64,000 nucleotides of DNA, taken from contig JALWJZ010000004.1 of assembly GCA_026996855.1 (NCBI GenBank), forward strand, positions 4,334 to 68,333. The letters run 5' to 3'. The position numbers and the translations under genes were made by a program. Positions 750 through 57,547 of this stretch are shown piece by piece. Under the pieces are notes generated by a model. It worked only from the letters and a program-made list of their open reading frames with translations. It searched no databases and was not told the origin of the DNA. The stretch is from Anaerolineales bacterium (GTDB lineage Bacteria; Chloroflexota; Anaerolineae; Anaerolineales; DRMV01). Position 1 is the first letter of the stretch; every line of letters begins with the position of its first letter.

Positions 750-3257
750 ATGCGTAAACGGTGGCTTGCAGGCTTCGCGACTTTTCTGGGGCTGGTGCTC
801 ATCGCCCTCGTGGGCGGTGGCTTTTTCGTTGTGCGTCGGCCCTGGCCTCGAGTGCGGGGTACCCTTCGGGTTCCGGGCTTGAAGGACCAGGTGACCGTGT
901 ACCGGGACCGATGGGGTGTGCCTACCATCGTGGCCTCCAACACCCACGACCTCTTTTTCGCCCAGGGATACGTGCACGCCCAGGACCGTTTCTGGCAGAT
1001 GGAATTCTGGCGGCGCATTGGGCACGGCCGGCTGTCGGAAATCTTCGGCGAGGCTACCTTAGGACAGGACCGGTTCATCCGCACCCTGGGTTGGCACCGC
1101 ACCGCGGCCCTGGAGTGGGACCGGCTGGACCCGGACACCCAGGCGGCCTTGCAGGCCTATGCGGAAGGCGTCAACGCCTACCTGGCCACCCATAAAGGTC
1201 CCCTGGCCCTGGAATACACCTTCCTGGGTTTGCAGGGCGAGGTGCCCGAACCCGAACCCTGGTCGCCGTTGGACACGCTGGTTTGGGCCAAGGTCATGGC
1301 CTGGGACCTGGGCGGGAACCGCCAGGACGAACTCAAGCGGGCCGCGCTCATGCAGCGCCTGGGCCGAGACCGGGTGCAGGACCTGTACCCGCCCTACCCC
1401 GAAGAGCATCCGGTGATTCTTCCCCCCTCGGCCCTTGAGGGAGCAGGAGGCGGGCCCGCGCCTCATCTTCCTTCGGAACTGGCCTTGCATCCTGGTGCCC
1501 TGGACGCGCTTCCTTGGGATGCCATGACCGCGCTGGACGCGATTTTCGGCCCCGCGGGCTGGGCGGGGAGCAACAACTGGGTGCTGGCACCGAGCCGTAC
1601 CACTACCGGCCGGCCCCTTCTCGCCAACGACCCGCATCTGGCCATCCAAATGCCGGCCATCTGGTACACCGTGAACCTGCAGTGCCAGCCCGTGGGTCCG
1701 CAGTGCCCCTACCGGGTGGCGGGCGTGTCTTTCCCCGGCTCGCCCGGTGTGGTCATCGGGCACAATGCGCACATCGCCTGGGGGGTGACCAACGCACCGG
1801 TGGACGTGCAGGATTTTTACATCCTGAAGACCAATCCCGAGAACCCCGACCAGTACTTGGTGGACGGCCAATGGGTGGACATGGACATCGTGTGGGAGGA
1901 AATTCGGGTGAAGGGCCGGGACGAACCCGTCATGGTGCGGGTGCGTTTGACCCGTTTCGGCCCCATCTTGAACGACATCGCAGGCGGCACCGAGGAAGCG
2001 TGGGCTTTCGGCTGGCAGCCCCTGGCCTTTCGCTGGACCGCGCTGGACCCCAGCAAGACGGTGCAGGCCGTGTTGAAACTGAACCGCGCCCGAAATTGGG
2101 ACGAATTCCTGGACGCGTTGCGGGACTGGGACGTGCCCAGCCAGAACGTGGTGTATGCCGACGTAGAGGGCAACATCGGCTACAAGGTGCCGGGCCGCAT
2201 CCCCATCCGTCACCCGGAGCACAGCGGTTTGGTCCCCGTGCCCGGCTGGGAAAGCAAGTACGCCTGGCAGGAGTACATCCCCTACGAGGAATTGCCCCAG
2301 GTGTTCAACCCCCCGGAGGGCTTCATTGCCACCGCGAACCAGGCCATCGTCCGAACCGAAGACTACCCTTATTACCTCACCCACGATTGGGATCGGGGCT
2401 ACCGGGCCAAACGCATCCACGACCTGCTCACCCAGAAGGAGCGCTTCAGCCCTGAGGATATCCAGACCATTCAGGTGGACGATTACCTCCTGCCCGCCGA
2501 TGCCCTTTTGCCCCATCTGGAGCCGTTGCAACCCCAGGACGAGCGCTTGCAACAGGCCCTGGAGATTTTGCGCACCTGGGACCGTCGTGCTTCGGTGGAT
2601 TCGGTGGGTGCCACTTTGTTCGAGACCTTTCGCATGTATTTGCTTTGGGAAATCTTCGCCGACGAATTGGGGTCCGACCTGGCCCAGCGCTATCTAAACG
2701 CCCGTTCCCTGCCCATGCTGGCCCTGGCCCGGGTGCTGGAAGACGAGCATTCCCCCTGGTACGACAACGTGTACACCCCTGACCGGGTCGAGACCAAAGA
2801 GGAGGTGCTGCTCCGGTCTTTGGAAAAGGCGGTGGACCATCTCACCCAGGCCCTGGGGGAGGACATGACCCAATGGCGCTGGGGCCGGGTGCACACCGCG
2901 ACCCTGGTGCATCAGACGTTGGGGAAATCGGGCGTGTCTTTGCTGGAGCGGGTGTTCAACCGGGGGCCGGTGCCCGTGCCGGGCAGTTGCATGGCCGTGA
3001 ACAACATGTGCTTTGGCTACAAGGACCCCTTCGCGGTGAGGGTCATCCCCTCCTATCGGCAGGTCTTCGACGTGGGCCGGTGGGACCAGGCCGCGTGGGT
3101 GATTCACAGCACCGGGCAGTCGGGGCATCCCTACCATCCCCATTACGTGGACCAGATGCCCTTGTGGCAGCAGGGCGAGTACATCCCCCTTCCCTGGGAG
3201 CCGTCTTCCGCGGAAGCCACGGCCCGAGATGTGTTGGTGTTGCAACCTCCACCATGA
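750..3257 (+). CDS. penicillin acylase family protein (Ntn hydrolase, peptidase S45)
   Basis: ORF 732..3257; ATG at 750 follows GGAGA. N-terminal TM/signal segment WLAGFATFLGLVLIALVGGGFFVV. Family hallmark around the autoprocessing site: GWAGSNNWVLAPSRTTTGRPLLANDPHL. Confidence 0.9.
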   Translation: MRKRWLAGFATFLGLVLIALVGGGFFVVRRPWPRVRGTLRVPGLKDQVTVYRDRWGVPTIVASNTHDLFFAQGYVHAQDRFWQMEFWRRIGHGRLSEIFGEATLGQDRFIRTLGWHRTAALEWDRLDPDTQAALQAYAEGVNAYLATHKGPLALEYTFLGLQGEVPEPEPWSPLDTLVWAKVMAWDLGGNRQDELKRAALMQRLGRDRVQDLYPPYPEEHPVILPPSALEGAGGGPAPHLPSELALHPGALDALPWDAMTALDAIFGPAGWAGSNNWVLAPSRTTTGRPLLANDPHLAIQMPAIWYTVNLQCQPVGPQCPYRVAGVSFPGSPGVVIGHNAHIAWGVTNAPVDVQDFYILKTNPENPDQYLVDGQWVDMDIVWEEIRVKGRDEPVMVRVRLTRFGPILNDIAGGTEEAWAFGWQPLAFRWTALDPSKTVQAVLKLNRARNWDEFLDALRDWDVPSQNVVYADVEGNIGYKVPGRIPIRHPEHSGLVPVPGWESKYAWQEYIPYEELPQVFNPPEGFIATANQAIVRTEDYPYYLTHDWDRGYRAKRIHDLLTQKERFSPEDIQTIQVDDYLLPADALLPHLEPLQPQDERLQQALEILRTWDRRASVDSVGATLFETFRMYLLWEIFADELGSDLAQRYLNARSLPMLALARVLEDEHSPWYDNVYTPDRVETKEEVLLRSLEKAVDHLTQALGEDMTQWRWGRVHTATLVHQTLGKSGVSLLERVFNRGPVPVPGSCMAVNNMCFGYKDPFAVRVIPSYRQVFDVGRWDQAAWVIHSTGQSGHPYHPHYVDQMPLWQQGEYIPLPWEPSSAEATARDVLVLQPPP

Positions 3258-3269
3258 GGGATGAGGTGT

Positions 3270-3902
3270 TTATCCATCCGGTGAAAGACGTTGGTGCACC
3301 ACCGGCCCCATGAGCGCGCAATAAGCCGAGGATTCCAGCCTTTCCAGGGCTTCGTAACCTGTGTCCAGGTCCTCGGCCAGGATGAAGATGCCGTGCCGCG
3401 GTGCCAGCACGGCCGCGGCGTAGCGACGCAGGATTTCGCGCTGGGCTTCCAGGGCTTGGGCAATCTGGTCGGCCAATGCCTGGGTGTGGGAGGGCGCGCC
3501 GGGAATGAGGGGCACGGTGCCGAACACGTCCGTGGCCTCCAGCATGGAAGGCAGGGGCACCCGGTGGGCACAGAAGACCAGGATGTTGCGGGGATGGGCA
3601 TGGACCACGGCTGCACCCTCGGGATAGAACTTCCGCAAGAGGGTGAAGTGGACCCGGGCTTCTCGCGAAACTTCGCCTTCACCGTCCAGCAAATTCCCCT
3701 CCAGGTCGAACACCAGGATTTGGCGCGGGTGCAACCGCCAGCGCCAGCGGCTCCCCGCGTAGCGCGGGGTCATGAGGATGAAATCGTCCAGGCGCACGCC
3801 TAAGTTGCCACCCGCGGCATCGGTCAGTTGTCGCTCGAACATCAGGCGCCCGATTTCCGTCATCAACTCGCGCGTTTCCTGGATGCGTGTGTACGAGATC
3901 AT
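3270..3902 (-). CDS. class II aldolase/adducin family protein
   Basis: ORF 3270..3941; ATG at 3902 with AGGAGG upstream. Motifs LTDAAGGNLGVR and VVHAHPRN (metal-binding His) are typical of the class II aldolase/adducin N-terminal domain. Confidence 0.75.
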   Translation of the reverse strand: MISYTRIQETRELMTEIGRLMFERQLTDAAGGNLGVRLDDFILMTPRYAGSRWRWRLHPRQILVFDLEGNLLDGEGEVSREARVHFTLLRKFYPEGAAVVHAHPRNILVFCAHRVPLPSMLEATDVFGTVPLIPGAPSHTQALADQIAQALEAQREILRRYAAAVLAPRHGIFILAEDLDTGYEALERLESSAYCALMGPVVHQRLSPDG

Positions 3903-18677: not shown

Positions 18678-19120
18678 CCTACCGGGCCGGTCTGTAAGCC
18701 GCATTCTGTACGCCTCCGAGAGGGGGCACCCTCGAAGGCGCGGTGGTCATCTATCTAAGCGGCCTACCCGGGGCTCCAGGGGTGCGGGCCACACCCCGGC
18801 GGGAGCGTGCCCGCCTTCGCCCCTGCTTGGCCTTGCTCCCGGCGGCGGTTGCCTGGACGCCCGCCGGTTACCCGGCGAGCCGGTGGGCTCTTACCCCACC
18901 TTTTCACCCTTGCCCGCACCCGCCCGCTCTGCTTTGCTCGCCGTGATGCCGTGGGCCCTTACGACCCACAAGCGGGCGGGCCGCTGGCGGTCTGTTTCTG
19001 TGGCCCTTGCGCGGGGTTGCCCCCGCCCGGGTTTCCCCGGCGCCGTGCCCTGTGGAGTGCGGACTTTCCTCCCCTCCGGCAGCACCGAAGGGGCGACCAC
19101 CCGACCGACCCGGCCGGTTC
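18678..19120 (-). ncRNA. rnpB: RNase P RNA, bacterial type A
   Basis: The minus strand contains the universally conserved blocks GGAGGAAAGTCCG, ACAGAAACAGACCGCC, AGGGTGAAAAGGTGGGGTAAGAGCCCACC, GGAGCAAGGCCAAGCAGGGG, CCCGGGTAGGCCGCTTAGA and ACAGAATGCGGCTTACAG, in the same order as E. coli rnpB. The ends are approximate, set from P1 pairing of accggccgggtc with gaccggcccggt. Confidence 0.92.
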
Positions 19121-38231: not shown

Positions 38232-38319
38232 TGGTGCCGAAGGGGGGACTCGAACCCCCACGGGCGTAATGCCCACGGCGTCCTGAGCGCCGCGCGTCTG
38301 CCAATTCCGCCACTTCGGC
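38232..38319 (-). tRNA. tRNA-Leu (anticodon CAG), CCA encoded
   Basis: Minus strand reads GCCGAAGTGGCGGAATTGGCAGACGCGCGGCGCTCAGGACGCCGTGGGCATTACGCCCGTGGGGGTTCGAGTCCCCCTTCGGCACCA. Acceptor GCCGAAG/CTTCGGC, anticodon stem CGGCG/CGCCG with loop CTCAGGA, a long variable arm, and T arm GGGGG-TTCGAGT-CCCCC. Confidence 0.92.
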
Positions 38320-42088: not shown

Positions 42089-42330
42089 GCGTTTTTTCAA
42101 AATCCATCAAAAGCCATCGCATTTTCTCACGGAGACACAGAGAACACAGAGAAAATTCTGGCCTTCTCCAGCAAGTACTCCGTGCTCTCCGTGGCTCTGT
42201 GTGCGCATTTATTAGAACATGCAAAACGCCTGGCAACTTCTTTTCTCACACGGAGAAAAAATTTTGGTCTTCTCCGGTGGATGCTCCGCGCGCTCCGTGG
42301 CTCTGGGGGAGGATGTAGCAAAACGCCCGG
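42089..42330 (+). repeat. CACRGAG-heptamer repeat element: one full copy plus a degenerate tandem copy (MITE/REP-like)
   Basis: 42089-42233 reads gcgttttttcaaaatccatcaaaagccatcgcattttctCACGGAGaCACAGAGaaCACAGAGaaaattctggccttctccagcaagtaCTCCGTGctCTCCGTGgCTCTGTGtgcgcatttattagaacatgcaaaacgcctgg. 42240-42330 repeats the core in degenerate form. Confidence 0.85.
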
Positions 42331-53451: not shown

Positions 53452-53523
53452 TTCCTCTGTGTTCTCTATGCCTCCATGAGGACATGCGATGGCTTTTGCT
53501 TCTATTGGATTTTGAAAAACACG
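53452..53523 (-). repeat. CACRGAG-heptamer repeat element, partial copy in inverted orientation
   Basis: The reverse complement reads gtgtttttcaaaatccaatagaagcaaaagccatcgcatgtcctCATGGAGgCATAGAGaaCACAGAGgaaatg. It matches the left half of the 42089 and 57391 copies. A further fragment (cacaaaggacacagaaattc) lies at about 53595-53615. Confidence 0.7.
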
Positions 53524-53622
53524 TGTGGCTGCGTCAGGCTTGAATATGGAAAGGCGCATGGGCAATGGCCCTCTAACAACGCGTTTGCCTGGTATTGAGC
53601 CGTACACAAAGGACACAGAAAT

Positions 53623-54126
53623 TCAGGGCTCGGCGTCCAGGGCTTCGATCAGGTGGCGGTAACGGCGCACGAACCAATGGGCGAGCAAGGGGCGATATTC
53701 CCGCTGGATTGCTTTGGGCAGGGCGAAGAAATCGCCGAAAATGACCCCGTGACAGCGCTCGGCGCCGCAGTTGCAGGGGATGGGGGTTCCTCCGGTGAGG
53801 TTGATGTTGTAGTCGAAGGTGATTTCTTCCCCCGGGGCGATGTCGCGACGGGCCACGATATAAATGTCGGAGCCCTCGTGCCATTCGTACGCGTTCGGAT
53901 CACAACTGTGATTCACATAGCGGTCCGGGAACCCCCACAGGAGCACCTTTCCATCGGGGAAACTGCAGTGCTCGATGCGTTCGCCGAGGTCTTCGCGCAG
54001 GGGTGCGTCCTCGGTGATTTCCCGCACGATGTTCACCCGGCGAATGCGTTCCCCGGCCCGAAAAGGGCGCGTGGCAAAGAGCCCCAGCCCCTCAATCGGC
54101 GACGGCTTGACCTCTACGCCATTCAT
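53623..54126 (-). CDS. SET domain protein (putative protein-lysine methyltransferase)
   Basis: GLGLFATRPFRAGERI, RYVNHSCDPNA, GEEITFDY, and post-SET-like Cys residues CNCGAERC. Confidence 0.85.
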   Translation of the reverse strand: MNGVEVKPSPIEGLGLFATRPFRAGERIRRVNIVREITEDAPLREDLGERIEHCSFPDGKVLLWGFPDRYVNHSCDPNAYEWHEGSDIYIVARRDIAPGEEITFDYNINLTGGTPIPCNCGAERCHGVIFGDFFALPKAIQREYRPLLAHWFVRRYRHLIEALDAEP

Positions 54127-54189: not shown

Positions 54190-54310
54190 CGCTAACGGCA
54201 CCAGTGTGAGGTCGCCGTCCAATGGCCTTTGCTGGCGCATAACCTTGGCCCGAATTTCCCACCCACGTTCGCGCGCGGCGCAGCCGCGTCCGCTGCACGC
54301 GGGGTTAGCC
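54190..54310 (-). other. attC-like structured repeat, copy A (the more degenerate copy)
   Basis: The minus strand starts with GGCTAAC and ends with GTTAGCG, so the termini GCTAAC/GTTAGC are exact reverse complements. It is a direct repeat of 56300-56425 (shared block ttggcc.gaaat..ccc.cc.acgttcgcgcg.ggcgc.gccgcgtccgctg.acgc). It begins 2 nt after the stop of the 489-aa gene. Confidence 0.5.
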
Positions 54311-54312
54311 CG

Positions 54313-55782
54313 CTAATTTTTCTCCTTATCCTCTTTAGAAAGCCTACCCTTTAACAGGGGCTCAAATAAATCGGCCAAATTCATTCCCAATTGTTCCTCT
54401 GCAAGTCCTTCAGGGATTTTAACCCCTTCAATAAATTTTTCTCCCACTTCTCGTGTCAATGCTACACCTACAAAGCCCAGGCGTTTGCTCCTAGTCTGCT
54501 CTGATTTTAGAGGCGGGAGAGCGATGAGTGTACTTGCGCCTGTCATCGCCGCCCCTATAGCTTGGTGTAAACGCTGACGAAGAAGGGCACGGACTGCCAT
54601 TCGCGGAAAACGAGCTATGCCCGTTGAGGCGCGCTTGACAGGATCTGAGGCACTATCCACCGTTCGTAAGAATTCATCAATGAAATATCGTGCACGTCGC
54701 CACATGTAAGAGCGGAAAGGAACATTTGTCAAGAAGATATCGGTGGATGCCGGGTCGAACCAAACCTCATCATAGGGGACACGCGTCTCTTCGCTCTGCA
54801 CTTTGTCCAGATACTCTCGATCCAGGTCTTCCAGCATCAACCCTGATGTCCAGCCATAATAACTTCCTTCCACAAGAAGAATGCGTTTGGGCTTTTGCTC
54901 TAAACCATGCAAAGCCTCCTCAAAAATCTCTCTCACGGACGCGATGACTTGCTCGTGACGCGCGTGAATATACTTTAACAACAGAGAGGCTTGCTCCCTC
55001 AAGTAAGGAATATCATTTGCCTTGTCCTTGAATACCTCAATGAAACCTTTCTGCCGACTCAACCCTATAATATCCTCCGGGGTGCTGTCCAGACGCACAT
55101 TGTCTATAAAACTGATTCCTGTTCCTGCATCTTTGAGTAACAAATTCCACGGATTGGGAAAGGTTCTAAAATTTCTAAGCAACCCCGGGGCATGGGTCTC
55201 AAACCATTCTTCGCAACTGGGACAGAAACAGGTCAGTTCAAGTCTACCGTTTTTTGCTCCCATTGGGAAAAGATTTACCACATCTAACACAACTCCCACC
55301 AATTTCCCTGGCGTATCTTTCGTAGCCATTCTGGCTATATCTATGCCAGTGCCAAGGATGGCCCCCACAATAGCACGGCTCATAGGGTTGCCAACGCATA
55401 CGGCATGGGAACTGTCGCCGGAAATGTCAACAATATGTAATGGTGCAGCGCGGATGAATTCTAGGGTGGGGTTAATAAGCAGGTAAATGTCGAGCCCTTT
55501 CTGCGCAAATGCATGTACTACATCTGAGAATTCCTTCAATCTATCTGACACTCGAGCATAGGGCGATATTGGCTCATCTAATCCACTCACCTTAAATACT
55601 AATCCTTCAGGATGGGAGACGGGTAAAACCACACCTTGAGGCTCTACTCCCCACATCTCTTTAAACTGTTTTATCACCTCATCGGGCTTCACGTACCGTA
55701 AGAATCCAAGGTGAGGGATATCTACCACATTGCTACCAGAATTCCCAGCCAGTATCTTTTGAATTTTGAATTGCCGAGTCAT
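54313..55782 (-). CDS. hypothetical protein, 489 aa, with a CxCxxC knuckle; function unknown (cassette gene 2)
   Basis: Clean ORF in AT-rich DNA. Its ATG overlaps the stop of the upstream gene (ATGA at 55779-55782). CFCPSC is at aa 185-190 (nt 55213-55230). An alternating strand/helix-like pattern (DIYLLINP, GVVLDVVNLFPMG, ILLVEGSYYGW) suggests an alpha/beta barrel. No family recognised with confidence. Confidence 0.8.
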   Translation of the reverse strand: MTRQFKIQKILAGNSGSNVVDIPHLGFLRYVKPDEVIKQFKEMWGVEPQGVVLPVSHPEGLVFKVSGLDEPISPYARVSDRLKEFSDVVHAFAQKGLDIYLLINPTLEFIRAAPLHIVDISGDSSHAVCVGNPMSRAIVGAILGTGIDIARMATKDTPGKLVGVVLDVVNLFPMGAKNGRLELTCFCPSCEEWFETHAPGLLRNFRTFPNPWNLLLKDAGTGISFIDNVRLDSTPEDIIGLSRQKGFIEVFKDKANDIPYLREQASLLLKYIHARHEQVIASVREIFEEALHGLEQKPKRILLVEGSYYGWTSGLMLEDLDREYLDKVQSEETRVPYDEVWFDPASTDIFLTNVPFRSYMWRRARYFIDEFLRTVDSASDPVKRASTGIARFPRMAVRALLRQRLHQAIGAAMTGASTLIALPPLKSEQTRSKRLGFVGVALTREVGEKFIEGVKIPEGLAEEQLGMNLADLFEPLLKGRLSKEDKEKN

Positions 55783-56276
55783 CTGCTGCCTCCCGATATA
55801 AATTTTTGTTTGGCGGTCCTGGTAAGCTCATACCTACCTGGTGATGCTTCTATTAGATACCCTTTTGATATCAGAGTGTCTAATACAAATTCGCCCAAAG
55901 CGGCATTGTTTTGCAGTGCTGGCGAGATACTCTGGATCAATTCTTCTCTTGTAGCTCTTTCGCTTTTACTGCTCCGCAGATAATGGTGGATATTTTGTAT
56001 AGCTCGAGTAACGAATTTCTTGGTGGTTTCGCTTTCCTCTAGATAATGGCCCGTAATCTTCTCAACAGCTTTCTCTACGGCTTCCTTTGTTTCTTTTGAA
56101 CTTCTAGATATTTCGGATTTAATTTTTTCGGTTTCCGCTCTCAACTTCTCAGCCTCTGCCCGCAGTTTTTCAACTTCAGCTGAACTTTTTTTTCTTGTAA
56201 ACAAATGGTTTGCAATAGCAACAAGGAGACCACCGATTACAGAAGTGATTAGCGCAGCTACTATTTCTTCAGACAT
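55779..56276 (-). CDS. hypothetical membrane-anchored coiled-coil protein with a winged-helix-like C-terminus, 165 aa (cassette gene 1)
   Basis: ORF 55779..56459; ATG at 56276 follows GGAGG. TM helix IVAALITSVIGGLLVAIANHLF. Repeated EKLRAEAEKLRAETEKIKSEI coiled coil. The C-terminal LISKGYLIEASPGRYELT resembles a wHTH wing. Confidence 0.75.
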   Translation of the reverse strand: MSEEIVAALITSVIGGLLVAIANHLFTRKKSSAEVEKLRAEAEKLRAETEKIKSEISRSSKETKEAVEKAVEKITGHYLEESETTKKFVTRAIQNIHHYLRSSKSERATREELIQSISPALQNNAALGEFVLDTLISKGYLIEASPGRYELTRTAKQKFISGGSR

Positions 56277-56299: not shown

Positions 56300-56425
56300 G
56301 CCTAACGCCAGCGTCAGCGGCGCGGCTCCGTCGTCCAACGGTCTTTATAGCCGCATGATTTTTGGCCGAAATCCCGCCGACGTTCGCGCGTGGCGCGGCC
56401 GCGTCCGCTGAACGCTCGGTTGGGG
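56300..56425 (-). other. attC-like structured repeat, copy B (well-formed imperfect hairpin)
   Basis: Minus strand: CCCCAAC cg AGCGT t CAGCGG a CGCGGC [71 nt] GCCGCG CCGCTG ACGCT ggc GTTAGGC. The 3' box matches GTTRRRY perfectly. Stems pair 56301-06/56419-24, 56310-14/56412-16, 56315-20/56405-10 and 56321-26/56398-403. Unpaired bases A56411 and T56404 are both on one arm. Confidence 0.6.
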
Positions 56426-56455: not shown

Positions 56456-56677
56456 TCACTCCTTTTCTCTGCCGCTATCCCTCTCTCGCTTTATCTCATC
56501 CACGATTTCCGCTAAACTCTTCTCGCCAAACAAGGCCTCGCGCTCTTCAGCGTACTCCCCAAACCCCGTAGTAAACTGCCGCAAAAAGCGCACAGCGTTT
56601 ACCACTCCTAATTCCCGATAAAGCGCCCAAAAGGCCTTGCGATTGACTTCGACTAACGGCTCAGCATACACGCTCAT
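56456..56677 (-). CDS. small protein co-transcribed with the PIN gene, putative antitoxin (73 aa)
   Basis: The ATG overlaps the PIN gene stop (ATGA at 56674-56677). Acidic C-terminus. No DNA-binding fold recognised; the call rests on context. Confidence 0.55.
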   Translation of the reverse strand: MSVYAEPLVEVNRKAFWALYRELGVVNAVRFLRQFTTGFGEYAEEREALFGEKSLAEIVDEIKRERDSGREKE

Positions 56678-57114
56678 CTTTCCAACTCCTCCGCCAATTC
56701 CACCGGCGTCACGACCTTTACCGCCAAATGCCCTAAACGCTTTGCTCTTTTCAGAAGTTTGTCATCGCTCGTGCAAAAATAATCCACCTTCCCTTTCTCT
56801 GCCAATGCCAAATGCAAAGCATCAAGGGGTTTGAAGCCCTCTTCCACCAAATGGTTTGCCCGTTCTTCTACCTCTTTCGTGATGACCAGGTGCTCTTTAG
56901 CCAACTCCAACACAGCCAGGGCATACTCCCGACGAACAGGGTGTGGATTGCGCCTCACCTCATAAACCAAGGCGTCTGATGAGACAATCTCCACTTGGCC
57001 ACGCTCACATAGCGCAAGGATGCCCAGAATCGCCTCGGCCTCAATGGCAATGCGCAAATGACTCGGCGTATCCAACGGCCTTTGAATCGCACCCACATCC
57101 AGATAGATCTTCAT
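56674..57114 (-). CDS. PIN domain ribonuclease (VapC-like toxin)
   Basis: The acidic quartet fits a PIN fold: D6 (IYLDVG), E in EAEAIL, D in PLDALHLALA, and D in FCTSDDKLL. Length is 146 aa. Confidence 0.8.
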   Translation of the reverse strand: MKIYLDVGAIQRPLDTPSHLRIAIEAEAILGILALCERGQVEIVSSDALVYEVRRNPHPVRREYALAVLELAKEHLVITKEVEERANHLVEEGFKPLDALHLALAEKGKVDYFCTSDDKLLKRAKRLGHLAVKVVTPVELAEELER

Positions 57115-57390
57115 GACTTCATTTTAGCATACCCTGGATGAAAGATCCCCCGCCCGCCTGACTATCAATTCTCCCGCTCTTTCGTCGCGAAACCGGCACA
57201 AACGCGGCGGATTTGTGTATACTATACCAAAATTTGCGCTTTATGCGGCGTGCATGCCAAAATCTTGCGGGTTTTGCGACGATTTTGTCGGATAATCCCG
57301 CGCTCGGGCGGTTTTCGCGACATCTTCTCTTTCGTACATCGCGCGCGACCACGCGCGCACGTTCCTTATCCGGTTTTCACGGGGGCACAC

Positions 57391-57547
57391 GCGTTTTTCA
57401 AAATCCAACAAAAGCGGCAAAACAAAAGCCATCGCATGTTCTCACGGAGGCACAGAGAACACTGAGAAAGTTTTGGCCTTTCCCAGCCATACTCCGTGTT
57501 CTCCGTGGCTCTGTGTGAGTATTTGTTCAAACATGAAAAACGCCTGG
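57391..57547 (+). repeat. CACRGAG-heptamer repeat element, full copy (MITE/REP-like)
   Basis: Reads gcgtttttcaaaatccaacaaaagcggcaaaacaaaagccatcgcatgttctCACGGAGgCACAGAGaaCACTGAGaaagttttggcctttcccagccataCTCCGTGttCTCCGTGgCTCTGTGtgagtatttgttcaaacatgaaaaacgcctgg. It is collinear with 42089-42233. Confidence 0.85.

Follow-up and report, generated by a model that had tools for sequence, protein, structure and literature searches.

The two overlapping genes at positions 54313 to 56276 on the minus strand of a 64,000-nucleotide stretch of Anaerolineales bacterium DNA (contig JALWJZ010000004.1; "the window" below means this whole stretch) probably constitute a mobile conflict module with two components that is carried as a single integron cassette; it is most likely an anti-phage system of the abortive-infection type. 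An earlier note on this DNA had proposed that the translationally coupled cassette is a candidate novel defense or accessory system, and that proposal is supported here by the conserved pairing of the two genes across many lineages, by the swapping of effector domains in the partner protein, by relatives that reside in integrons and by the lack of a match between the second gene and any known family in the libraries searched. We refer to the first gene of the pair (55779-56276, minus strand; 165 amino acids [aa]) as gene 1 and to the second (54313-55782, minus strand; 489 aa) as gene 2.

The two genes are joined by an ATGA stop/start overlap at 55779-55782 (minus strand), which can be read directly from the sequence and is exactly where the earlier note had placed it. 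Gene 1 ends with the TGA at 55779-55781. Its mechanically called open reading frame (ORF) extends upstream to a GTG at 56459, but this longer frame traverses the upstream one of the two repeats that flank the pair, and the close homologues of gene 1 (P0246-P0256) are 165-176 aa long and do not have the extension; we therefore take the ATG at 56276 as the start. The Shine-Dalgarno sequence GGAGG lies at 56285-56281, 4 nt 5' of this ATG. The peptide motifs quoted when the pair was first noticed (EKLRAEAEKLRAETEK, LISKGYLIEASPGRYELT, CFCPSC, GVVLDVVNLFPMG and ILLVEGSYYGW) are all found in the translations. The foreign base composition described at that time is also borne out: the pair has a G+C content of ∼46%, and the region from 54 to 57 kb ranges from 0.45 to 0.53, compared with ∼0.64 across the remaining window.

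The comparison drew on 19 loci from genomes, 20 from metagenomes and some additional contigs, with a 10-sequence alignment used to scan genomes for relatives of gene 2. A same-strand gene is located directly upstream of the gene 2 homologue in ∼29 of 33 distinct loci, from many phyla, and in most cases the two genes abut or overlap. In 14 loci that were checked individually (L003, L009, L010, L013, L015, L017-L019, L025-L027 and L045-L047), the partner either overlaps gene 2 or ends no more than 54 nt from its start. Homologues of gene 2 do, then, co-occur with an equivalent of gene 1, as the reading of the pair as a unit would have it.

The partners are alike in alignment only over their C-terminal ∼70 aa, and their N-termini are unrelated. 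This C-terminal region is the winged-helix module described below for gene 1. A hidden Markov model (HMM) built from ten partners, together with a jackhmmer search started from the window sequence, recovered the module in the partners of 19 loci, including partners outside the training set that carry caspase, coiled-coil, trypsin and nucleosidase domains and that come from Streptomyces, Nonomuraea and others. In the other ten partner-bearing loci, the module is similar by eye but falls below threshold. A search of the winged-helix alignment against a set of 5.8 billion proteins returned no match at E values up to 0.01, the domain being too short for a database of that size.

In place of the N-terminal region of gene 1, the partners carry a series of different domains. 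Pfam identifies TIR_2 in L012, L015 and L033 (E 1.8e-25 and 7e-11), PNP_UDP_1 in L016, L019/L051, L022 and L048 (E 2e-33 to 2.5e-18), the caspase family Peptidase_C14 in L013 and L045 (E 7e-21 and 4.5e-14), Trypsin_2 in L046 (E 6e-12), Patatin in L018 (E 1e-8) and TauD in L036 (E 1e-14). Others are membrane proteins: transmembrane helices with a sub-threshold CarboxypepD_reg-like domain are found in L009 and L017, and in L031 by sequence similarity only; transmembrane segments alone are found in L010, L011, L040 and L043; and the window clade has a transmembrane helix followed by a coiled coil. Several of these N-terminal domains match PADLOC models, namely the purine-nucleosidase and phospholipase effectors of CBASS (antiphage signaling that is based on cyclic oligonucleotides) and a caspase. 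When a conserved core gene is found beside another gene whose coupling domain stays constant and whose killing domain is exchanged, this is a signature of prokaryotic immune or conflict systems, CBASS, Pycsar and the systems of PMC7159879 among them.

L037 has an extra ORF (2588-3517, 309 aa) upstream of its TauD partner, and in L038 an ORF of 371 aa (1590-2705) is located directly upstream of gene 2; by eye, both have a TIR-like or DUF4062-like N-terminus. Some versions of the system may have three genes.

Gene 1 of the window combines a membrane anchor with the shared module. As the earlier note had it, there is one N-terminal transmembrane helix: the highest 19-residue Kyte-Doolittle average, 2.28, falls at aa 4-22, and hydropathy together with an AlphaFold2 helix spanning residues 3-26 places the helix at aa 4-26 (56199-56267, minus strand). 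Directly behind the helix is TRKK, from which a cytoplasmic C-terminus is predicted. Next come charged, coiled-coil-like helices with the EKLRAEAEKLRAETEK repeat (aa 32-79; 56040-56183, minus strand), which AlphaFold2 models as helices 32-58 and 61-79 with low pLDDT and which yield only sub-threshold matches to coiled-coil-type families in Pfam and PADLOC. The transmembrane helix and the EKLRAEAEK coiled coil (aa 1-60) recur in the metagenomic proteins P0257-P0271, where they are fused to unrelated C-terminal domains of ∼60-170 aa, and this segment may by itself act as an effector or anchor at the membrane that can be passed between proteins.

The C-terminus of gene 1 (aa 83-160; 55797-56030, minus strand) had been likened to a winged helix, and the predicted structure agrees. 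AlphaFold2 (model mc8fe8befde25) gives a module of H-H-H-b-b-H topology with a pLDDT of ∼90, in which three helices (83-102, 110-121 and 125-137) precede a beta hairpin (strands 141-145 and 148-151). The best Foldseek matches are likewise winged-helix proteins, namely the dimerization domain of O-methyltransferases, AspA, the MCM8 winged helix, the cullin WHB domain, IdeR and MarR, at E 5e-3 and weaker. In the window protein, the helix presumed to serve for recognition (EFVLDTLISKGYL) contains one basic residue.

Gene 2, the invariant member of the pair, belongs to no family that could be named when it was first described, and this remains true after searches of Pfam, NCBIfam, PADLOC and PHROGs, in which it has zero matches. 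When 38 members of its family were compared with Pfam, no consistent family match emerged, and neither a glycoside hydrolase (GH) nor a tRNA-guanine transglycosylase (TGT) family matched at E values up to 10. None of the 38 matches a PADLOC-DB v2.0 model at E up to 0.01, and the family profile has 0 matches among PDB sequences at E up to 10. A word-indexed search recovered 108 clusters of gene 2 proteins, which are unnamed or called 'hypothetical' or 'uncharacterized', are ∼450-500 aa long and have no Pfam domains; their sources include Thermoguttaceae, Acidobacteriota, Streptomyces, Nonomuraea, Beggiatoa, Kentrum and Magnetococcales, among others. An exhaustive profile search of 1.84 billion representative proteins found 158 relatives at E up to 1e-3 and zero outgroup sequences. 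Because so few relatives and no outgroup appear in a set of this size, we regard gene 2 as a rare, closed, stand-alone family. The closest relatives with a named source are in metagenome-assembled genomes (MAGs) of Anaerolineae/Chloroflexi (58-66% identity) and Thermoguttaceae (∼60%).

The AlphaFold2 model of gene 2 (pLDDT 90.6, pTM 0.89) consists of strands alternating with helices. Foldseek was used to compare it with the PDB and with the viral models of BFVD. The best 50 PDB matches listed are TIM-barrel glycosidases, namely GH14 beta-amylase, GH35 and GH42 beta-galactosidases, GH31 alpha-glucosidases and GH20 enzymes, with E values of 1e-4 to 4e-3, identities of ∼10% and TM-scores of 0.22-0.39. 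Among the viral models, phage tail proteins score best, and a TIM-barrel annotation appears only on the weaker third match. The predicted fold class is clearly that of a TIM barrel, as the earlier note had guessed, but the fold matches establish no specific family relationship. Nor was there a confident HMM or structural match to a housekeeping enzyme, the fold matches being weak only. The largest Kyte-Doolittle 19-residue average in gene 2 is 1.24; since the protein has no hydrophobic segment, it is predicted to be soluble and cytoplasmic.

The most highly conserved feature of gene 2 is a set of four cysteines, each kept in 177 of 178 family members (99%). C129 (55396-55398, minus strand), which is invariant in the family alignment A1, is located just after barrel strand 124-128, and C185, C187 and C190 make up the CFCPSC knuckle (aa 185-190; 55213-55230, minus strand), which comes after strand 161-167 and a beta hairpin. 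The histidine that the earlier note had pointed out after CFCPSC, H197, is not conserved, and C129 is the predicted fourth ligand. The predicted metal site is therefore Cys4, and it probably holds a structural zinc. Outside this site, over the same 178 members, W341 is kept in 100%, Y366 in 98%, E339, R275 and R363 in 96% each and Y271 in 93%, and we read these six residues as a putative ligand-binding or single-acid catalytic pocket. The acidic strand ends that had been pointed out as reminiscent of TIM-barrel enzymes do not supply a strictly conserved catalytic pair (E182 62%, E305 78%, D167 84%).

The C-terminus of gene 2 (aa ∼460-489; 54313-54400, minus strand) is a conserved amphipathic helix that follows a variable linker modeled with low confidence. 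Examples are NLADLFEPLLKG, DLLEMLLKS and MLEQLFKQMM. This helix could be a docking or autoinhibitory tail.

The pair lies between two attC-like repeats, as the earlier note had reported, and the two copies are 80% identical over ∼140 nt. A 31-nt core of the repeat occurs exactly twice in the window, where 0 copies would be expected. The upstream site (56300-56425, minus strand) belongs to the preceding PIN cassette and has the core sites R'' CCCCAAC (56425-56419) and R' GTTAGGC (56306-56300). When folded as a single strand, it forms a long, imperfect hairpin in which two bulges of one base each are separated by 6 bp (dG -39.1 kcal/mol, z -2.8), and its attC-scan score of 28 is above the 99th percentile of background windows. 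The site that belongs to the pair itself (54190-54310, minus strand) begins with R'' GGCTAAC (54310-54304), 2 nt past the gene 2 stop, and ends with GTTAGCG (54196-54190); its 3' arm is unpaired (z -0.7) and its scan score is 13. The window thus contains the inverse core sites RYYYAAC/GTTRRRY and the bulged hairpin that characterize attC, intact in the upstream site and decayed in the pair's own. These calls are based on folding and a home-made scan and not on the IntegronFinder covariance model.

Relatives of the window pair preserve what its own site has lost. Compact, canonical attC hairpins of ∼70 nt that share the two-bulge geometry follow gene 2 in L025 and L027 and end in GTTAGCG or GTTAAGC. 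In five relatives from the window clade (L025-L028 and L032), the motif GGCTAAC is found where gene 2 stops or immediately past it; in L035 it is 64 nt downstream. The other end of the cassette is also marked by a core site: when L026 and L003 are compared with L027, the upstream homology begins exactly at GTTAGCC, ∼45 nt before the gene 1 ATG, as expected of one cassette that is bounded at the G|TT of a core site and inserted in different flanking contexts. At L051, an integron integrase is encoded 1.8 kb from the pair (TIGR02249, 499 bits versus a cut-off of 265), and IntI homologues adjoin the pair in L027, L015 and L038. The cassette setting proposed for the window is in this way matched by relatives in true integrons. 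The pair is lower in G+C than both of its flanks in 16 of 18 loci, and transposases, group II intron genes and toxin-antitoxin genes abound near gene 2 homologues. In the window itself, no IntI gene was detected (best tblastn E 0.26), and we therefore view this locus as an integrase-less remnant with one decayed site.

Three further loci illustrate the setting of the pair. In L028 (1-2232), a gene 2 whose product is 78% identical to the window protein is followed by an attC (GGCTAAC...GTTAGCC), then by a gene 1-like ORF (47%), and behind that by another gene 2 (72%); these tandem, diverged pairs suggest that the module diversifies within integrons. L051, from an Acidobacteriota MAG, contains between 1272 and 16617 intI, a T5orf172 gene, a nucleosidase partner with gene 2, a RelA_SpoT-like gene, two DinB genes and a DUF433/PIN_10 pair; the two attC-like sites examined there flank the spacer after gene 2, and the region looks like a complete chromosomal integron with cassette-like short genes. 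The Logan contig L002 (2274 nt) is an independent assembly of the window pair; its first nucleotide lies 128 nt ahead of the upstream repeat and its last one 33 nt inside the downstream repeat. Breaks at the repeats would be expected if the attC-like sequence were multi-copy in that community.

We propose the following model for how the pair would function. Gene 2 would be the invariant core, a cytoplasmic TIM barrel with a sensing or regulatory role, and gene 1 would be the effector, with its N-terminal part acting as an interchangeable killing module and its C-terminal winged helix acting as an adaptor, common to the whole family, through which any effector is coupled to gene 2. In a first step, gene 2 would detect a cue of infection, either as a bound ligand or as a substrate. 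It would then act through the winged helix, in the model we prefer by direct contact, to alter the oligomeric state of the effector, which would in turn halt the growth of the infected cell. A change in oligomerization is favored because this one mechanism could serve a TIR domain, a caspase, a patatin, a nucleosidase and a membrane helix alike. In the version found in the window, the transmembrane helix and coiled coil, once activated by gene 2, would multimerize and damage the membrane.

A more far-reaching form of this model is tentative, and we regard it as a possibility well short of probable. The glycosidase-like Cys4 TIM barrel might represent a new prokaryotic immune sensor or signal enzyme that handles a glycosidic compound of infection, such as phage DNA that carries sugar modifications or a messenger derived from nucleotides or sugars, that activates whichever effector is tethered through the winged helix, and that integrons have spread, with its partner in one cassette, to at least eight groups of phylum or class rank.

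Several observations weigh against reading the pair as a mobile defense module. Gene 2 is absent by tblastn from 72,556 plasmids and 50,697 phages, and it is also absent from IMG/VR, as scanned, and from PADLOC v2, so that it lacks the usual guilt by association with characterized systems. With its own attC decayed and no integrase nearby, the window copy may no longer be mobile. A scan of the region for promoters and terminators found nothing above chance, which fits a promoterless cassette but proves nothing. The effector part of gene 1, consisting of the transmembrane helix and coiled coil, has no demonstrable toxic activity and is modeled with low confidence by AlphaFold2. The winged-helix modules are basic (isoelectric point [pI] ∼9-10), and binding to DNA instead of docking to a protein is therefore possible. 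Finally, gene 2 is found without a recognizable partner in three lineages, two of Thermoguttaceae and one of Bryobacterales.

Among the alternatives, the one that survives best, and that we still consider unlikely, is that gene 2 makes or cleaves a small nucleotide- or sugar-derived signal for which the winged helix of the partner is the receptor. The effector repertoire is the same as that of the signal-activated effectors of CBASS, and gene 2 has an enzyme-type fold with one conserved acid (E339) as well as Arg, Tyr and Trp residues that are typical of nucleotide or sugar pockets. However, winged helices are not known as small-molecule receptors in CBASS-, Pycsar- or Thoeris-like systems, and the closest folds of this module are winged-helix domains that dock to proteins or bind DNA. 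Furthermore, the canonical Glu pair of glycosidases is not conserved (E305 78%, E182 62%), and gene 2 has no similarity to known signal synthases in Pfam, PADLOC, NCBIfam or the PDB sequences.

A second alternative, less likely again, is that the pair is a toxin-antitoxin or addiction system in which gene 1 is the toxin, gene 2 its neutralizer, and the role of the pair is to stabilize the cassette array or the host element. Chromosomal integrons hold many toxin-antitoxin cassettes, the overlapping genes of the window adjoin a PIN module, and toxin-antitoxin genes are frequent beside gene 2 homologues. Yet a conserved TIM barrel of 450-500 aa with a metal site and a putative pocket is atypical of antitoxins, the range of partner effectors is that of sensor-effector immune systems, and orphan copies of gene 2 persist without a partner. 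Many toxin-antitoxin modules work as abortive-infection systems, so the addiction and defense readings overlap.

It is improbable that the system is directed at DNA, with gene 2 as a glycosidase-like enzyme or reader of phage DNA that is modified with sugars or otherwise, and with the basic winged helix bringing the effector to DNA. The glycosidase-type barrel, the several conserved arginines of gene 2, the pI of 9-10 of the winged helix and the DNA-bound winged-helix proteins among the Foldseek matches (AspA, IdeR and MarR) point in this direction; the weakness of the fold matches (TM ∼0.35-0.39, ∼10% identity), the single basic residue of the recognition helix, the membrane tether of the window partner and the lack of a match between gene 2 and any DNA-enzyme family point away from it.

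We give very little weight to the idea that the pair encodes a housekeeping or accessory carbohydrate enzyme, of the kind of a GH42-like glycosidase, with a membrane regulator and no role in conflict. TIR, caspase, patatin and nucleosidase partners would make no sense in sugar metabolism, and the rare and patchy distribution, foreign G+C content and integron carriage also argue against it. Weak barrel matches to beta-amylase and to GH35, GH42, GH31 and GH20 enzymes and the GH42-like C...CxCxxC pattern speak in its favor, but gene 2 has no sequence match to GH families in Pfam or the PDB and does not conserve the catalytic Glu pair. Weakest of all is the comparison with TGT and DpdA-type transglycosylases, which the earlier note had itself flagged as speculative and which we reject: gene 2 does have a TIM barrel and a CxCxxC knuckle, but no such enzyme is among the best 50 PDB fold matches listed, none of 38 family members has a TGT match in Pfam or NCBIfam, and the metal site is Cys4, with C129 as its fourth ligand, instead of CxCxxC...H.

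The surroundings of the pair contain several other features. The PIN toxin module noted earlier as a neighbor does adjoin the cassette. It is a cassette-like unit (56456-57114, minus strand) in which a PIN gene (56674-57114, 146 aa; Pfam PIN, E 3.6e-7) overlaps by ATGA with a 73-aa ORF (56456-56677) that matches no family. Because this unit ends at the intact attC-like site, the two genes look like a separate cassette. Their order places the toxin first, and a toxin-first order is unusual for VapBC-type modules. On the other side of the pair, between the decayed attC-like site and a copy of the dispersed repeat described below, is a SET-domain gene (53623-54126, minus strand; Pfam E 1.4e-19); bacterial SET-domain methyltransferases are uncommon.

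A dispersed repeat of ∼80-110 nt with the core GCCTCCGTGAGAACATGCGATGGCTTTTG...TTGGATTTTGAAAAAC occurs at 53452-53551 (plus strand), 57362-57469 (minus strand) and 42108-42136 (minus strand). Two inverted copies bracket the low-G+C island that holds the SET gene, the two-gene cassette and the PIN module, and the third is 11 kb away. We considered the inverted copies at 53452-53551 and 57362-57469 as the ends of a transposon and rejected this in view of the third copy, which identifies the sequence as a dispersed intergenic repeat. It has no Rfam family at the gathering score and looks like an intergenic element of the repetitive extragenic palindromic (REP) or miniature inverted-repeat transposable element (MITE) type. 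An Rfam scan of the cassette region found no family. Elsewhere in the window are a bacterial class A RNase P RNA (18679-19112, minus strand; 177.5 bits) and a tRNA gene (38235-38319, minus strand), which are ordinary chromosomal markers, and the window is therefore chromosomal.

If the pair protects against phages, it would be a defense family whose core has no relative among characterized immune proteins, and a glycosidase-like TIM-barrel protein would join the known infection sensors and signal enzymes. Because nature offers partners of several kinds (TIR, purine nucleosidase, caspase, trypsin, patatin and membrane), activation can be read out directly, for instance as the depletion of NAD or ATP, and the winged-helix module may serve as a transferable adaptor between effector and sensor. 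The pair also shows that multi-gene defense candidates are carried by environmental integrons beyond those of Vibrio and clinical plasmids, here in arrays of Chloroflexi-type bacteria, Acidobacteriota and Zoogloea, which extends the recent view of integrons as banks of defense genes.

Of known enzymes, the closest parallel to the metal site of gene 2 is found in GH42. Gal42 has a structural zinc bound by Cys113, Cys153, Cys155 and Cys158, and its catalytic residues are Glu148 and Glu305 (PMC8573354). Gene 2 resembles these enzymes in its match to a (beta/alpha)8-type fold (5e9a and others) and in the same C...CxCxxC pattern formed by C129, C185, C187 and C190, with one Cys after one strand and CxCxxC after the next. 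It differs in that neither the acid/base NE motif just before CxCxxC nor the nucleophile Glu (strands 4 and 7 in GH-A) has a strictly conserved counterpart, in the lack of a sequence-level match, and in the lack of the trimerization and C-terminal domains, which are not seen in the single-domain gene 2 proteins of ∼450-500 aa. A canonical GH42 active site in gene 2 was rejected on the conservation of E182 and E305 over the 178 members given above. Because the catalytic glutamates are not strictly conserved, we do not file gene 2 under GH42 and do not assume glycosidase chemistry.

Metal-binding TIM barrels are also known from phage defense operons. RdrB, the adenosine deaminase of RADAR, is one such component. 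Another is QatD, the TatD protein of QatABCD (PMC13434339). Gene 2 is like both in being a metal-binding TIM barrel, as predicted, that forms the conserved part of a candidate defense operon, but no TatD or amidohydrolase match is found by sequence or among the fold matches listed, its metal site is Cys4 and not His/Asp, and its partners are different.

As a cassette, the pair can be compared with the phage defense systems that integron cassettes were recently shown to carry (bioRxiv 10.1101/2024.07.02.601719; Kieffer et al. 2025, Darracq et al. 2025 and Getz et al. 2025, cited by preprint 10.64898/2026.03.17.712381). It shares with them the apparently promoterless organization, the attC end with inverse core sites and a bulged hairpin, the GTTRRRY boundary, the foreign G+C content, an adjacent toxin-antitoxin cassette and, in relatives, a nearby intI. 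Whereas the described cassettes are mainly from Vibrio and clinical class 1 integrons, the pair comes from environmental arrays of Chloroflexi-type bacteria, Acidobacteriota and Zoogloea; in addition, it is a two-gene cassette of ∼2.1 kb, which is long for a cassette, and in the window its attC is decayed and an integrase is missing. Literature searches aimed at a prior description of the pair found none, and neither did a term search of one cassette-screen preprint (10.64898/2026.03.17.712381).

In its logic, the system resembles CBASS, Pycsar, Thoeris and the conflict systems with effector-associated domains (EADs) (Kaur et al. 2020, PMC7159879): a core gene is accompanied by an exchanged killing domain and a constant small coupling domain, the genes are compact and overlapping, and the taxonomic distribution is patchy. 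It is a member of none of them, and no model in PADLOC v2 represents it. The core is a Cys4 TIM barrel where these systems have a nucleotidyltransferase, cyclase, TIR or STAND NTPase, and the genes called in those loci for which gene lists were precomputed include no CD-NTase Pfam family. As its coupling domain, the system has a winged helix in place of a SAVED, STING, CARF, CNB or death-like EAD domain. What is new here is the candidate sensor family and the proposed winged-helix adaptor, within the familiar scheme of a sensor plus a modular effector.

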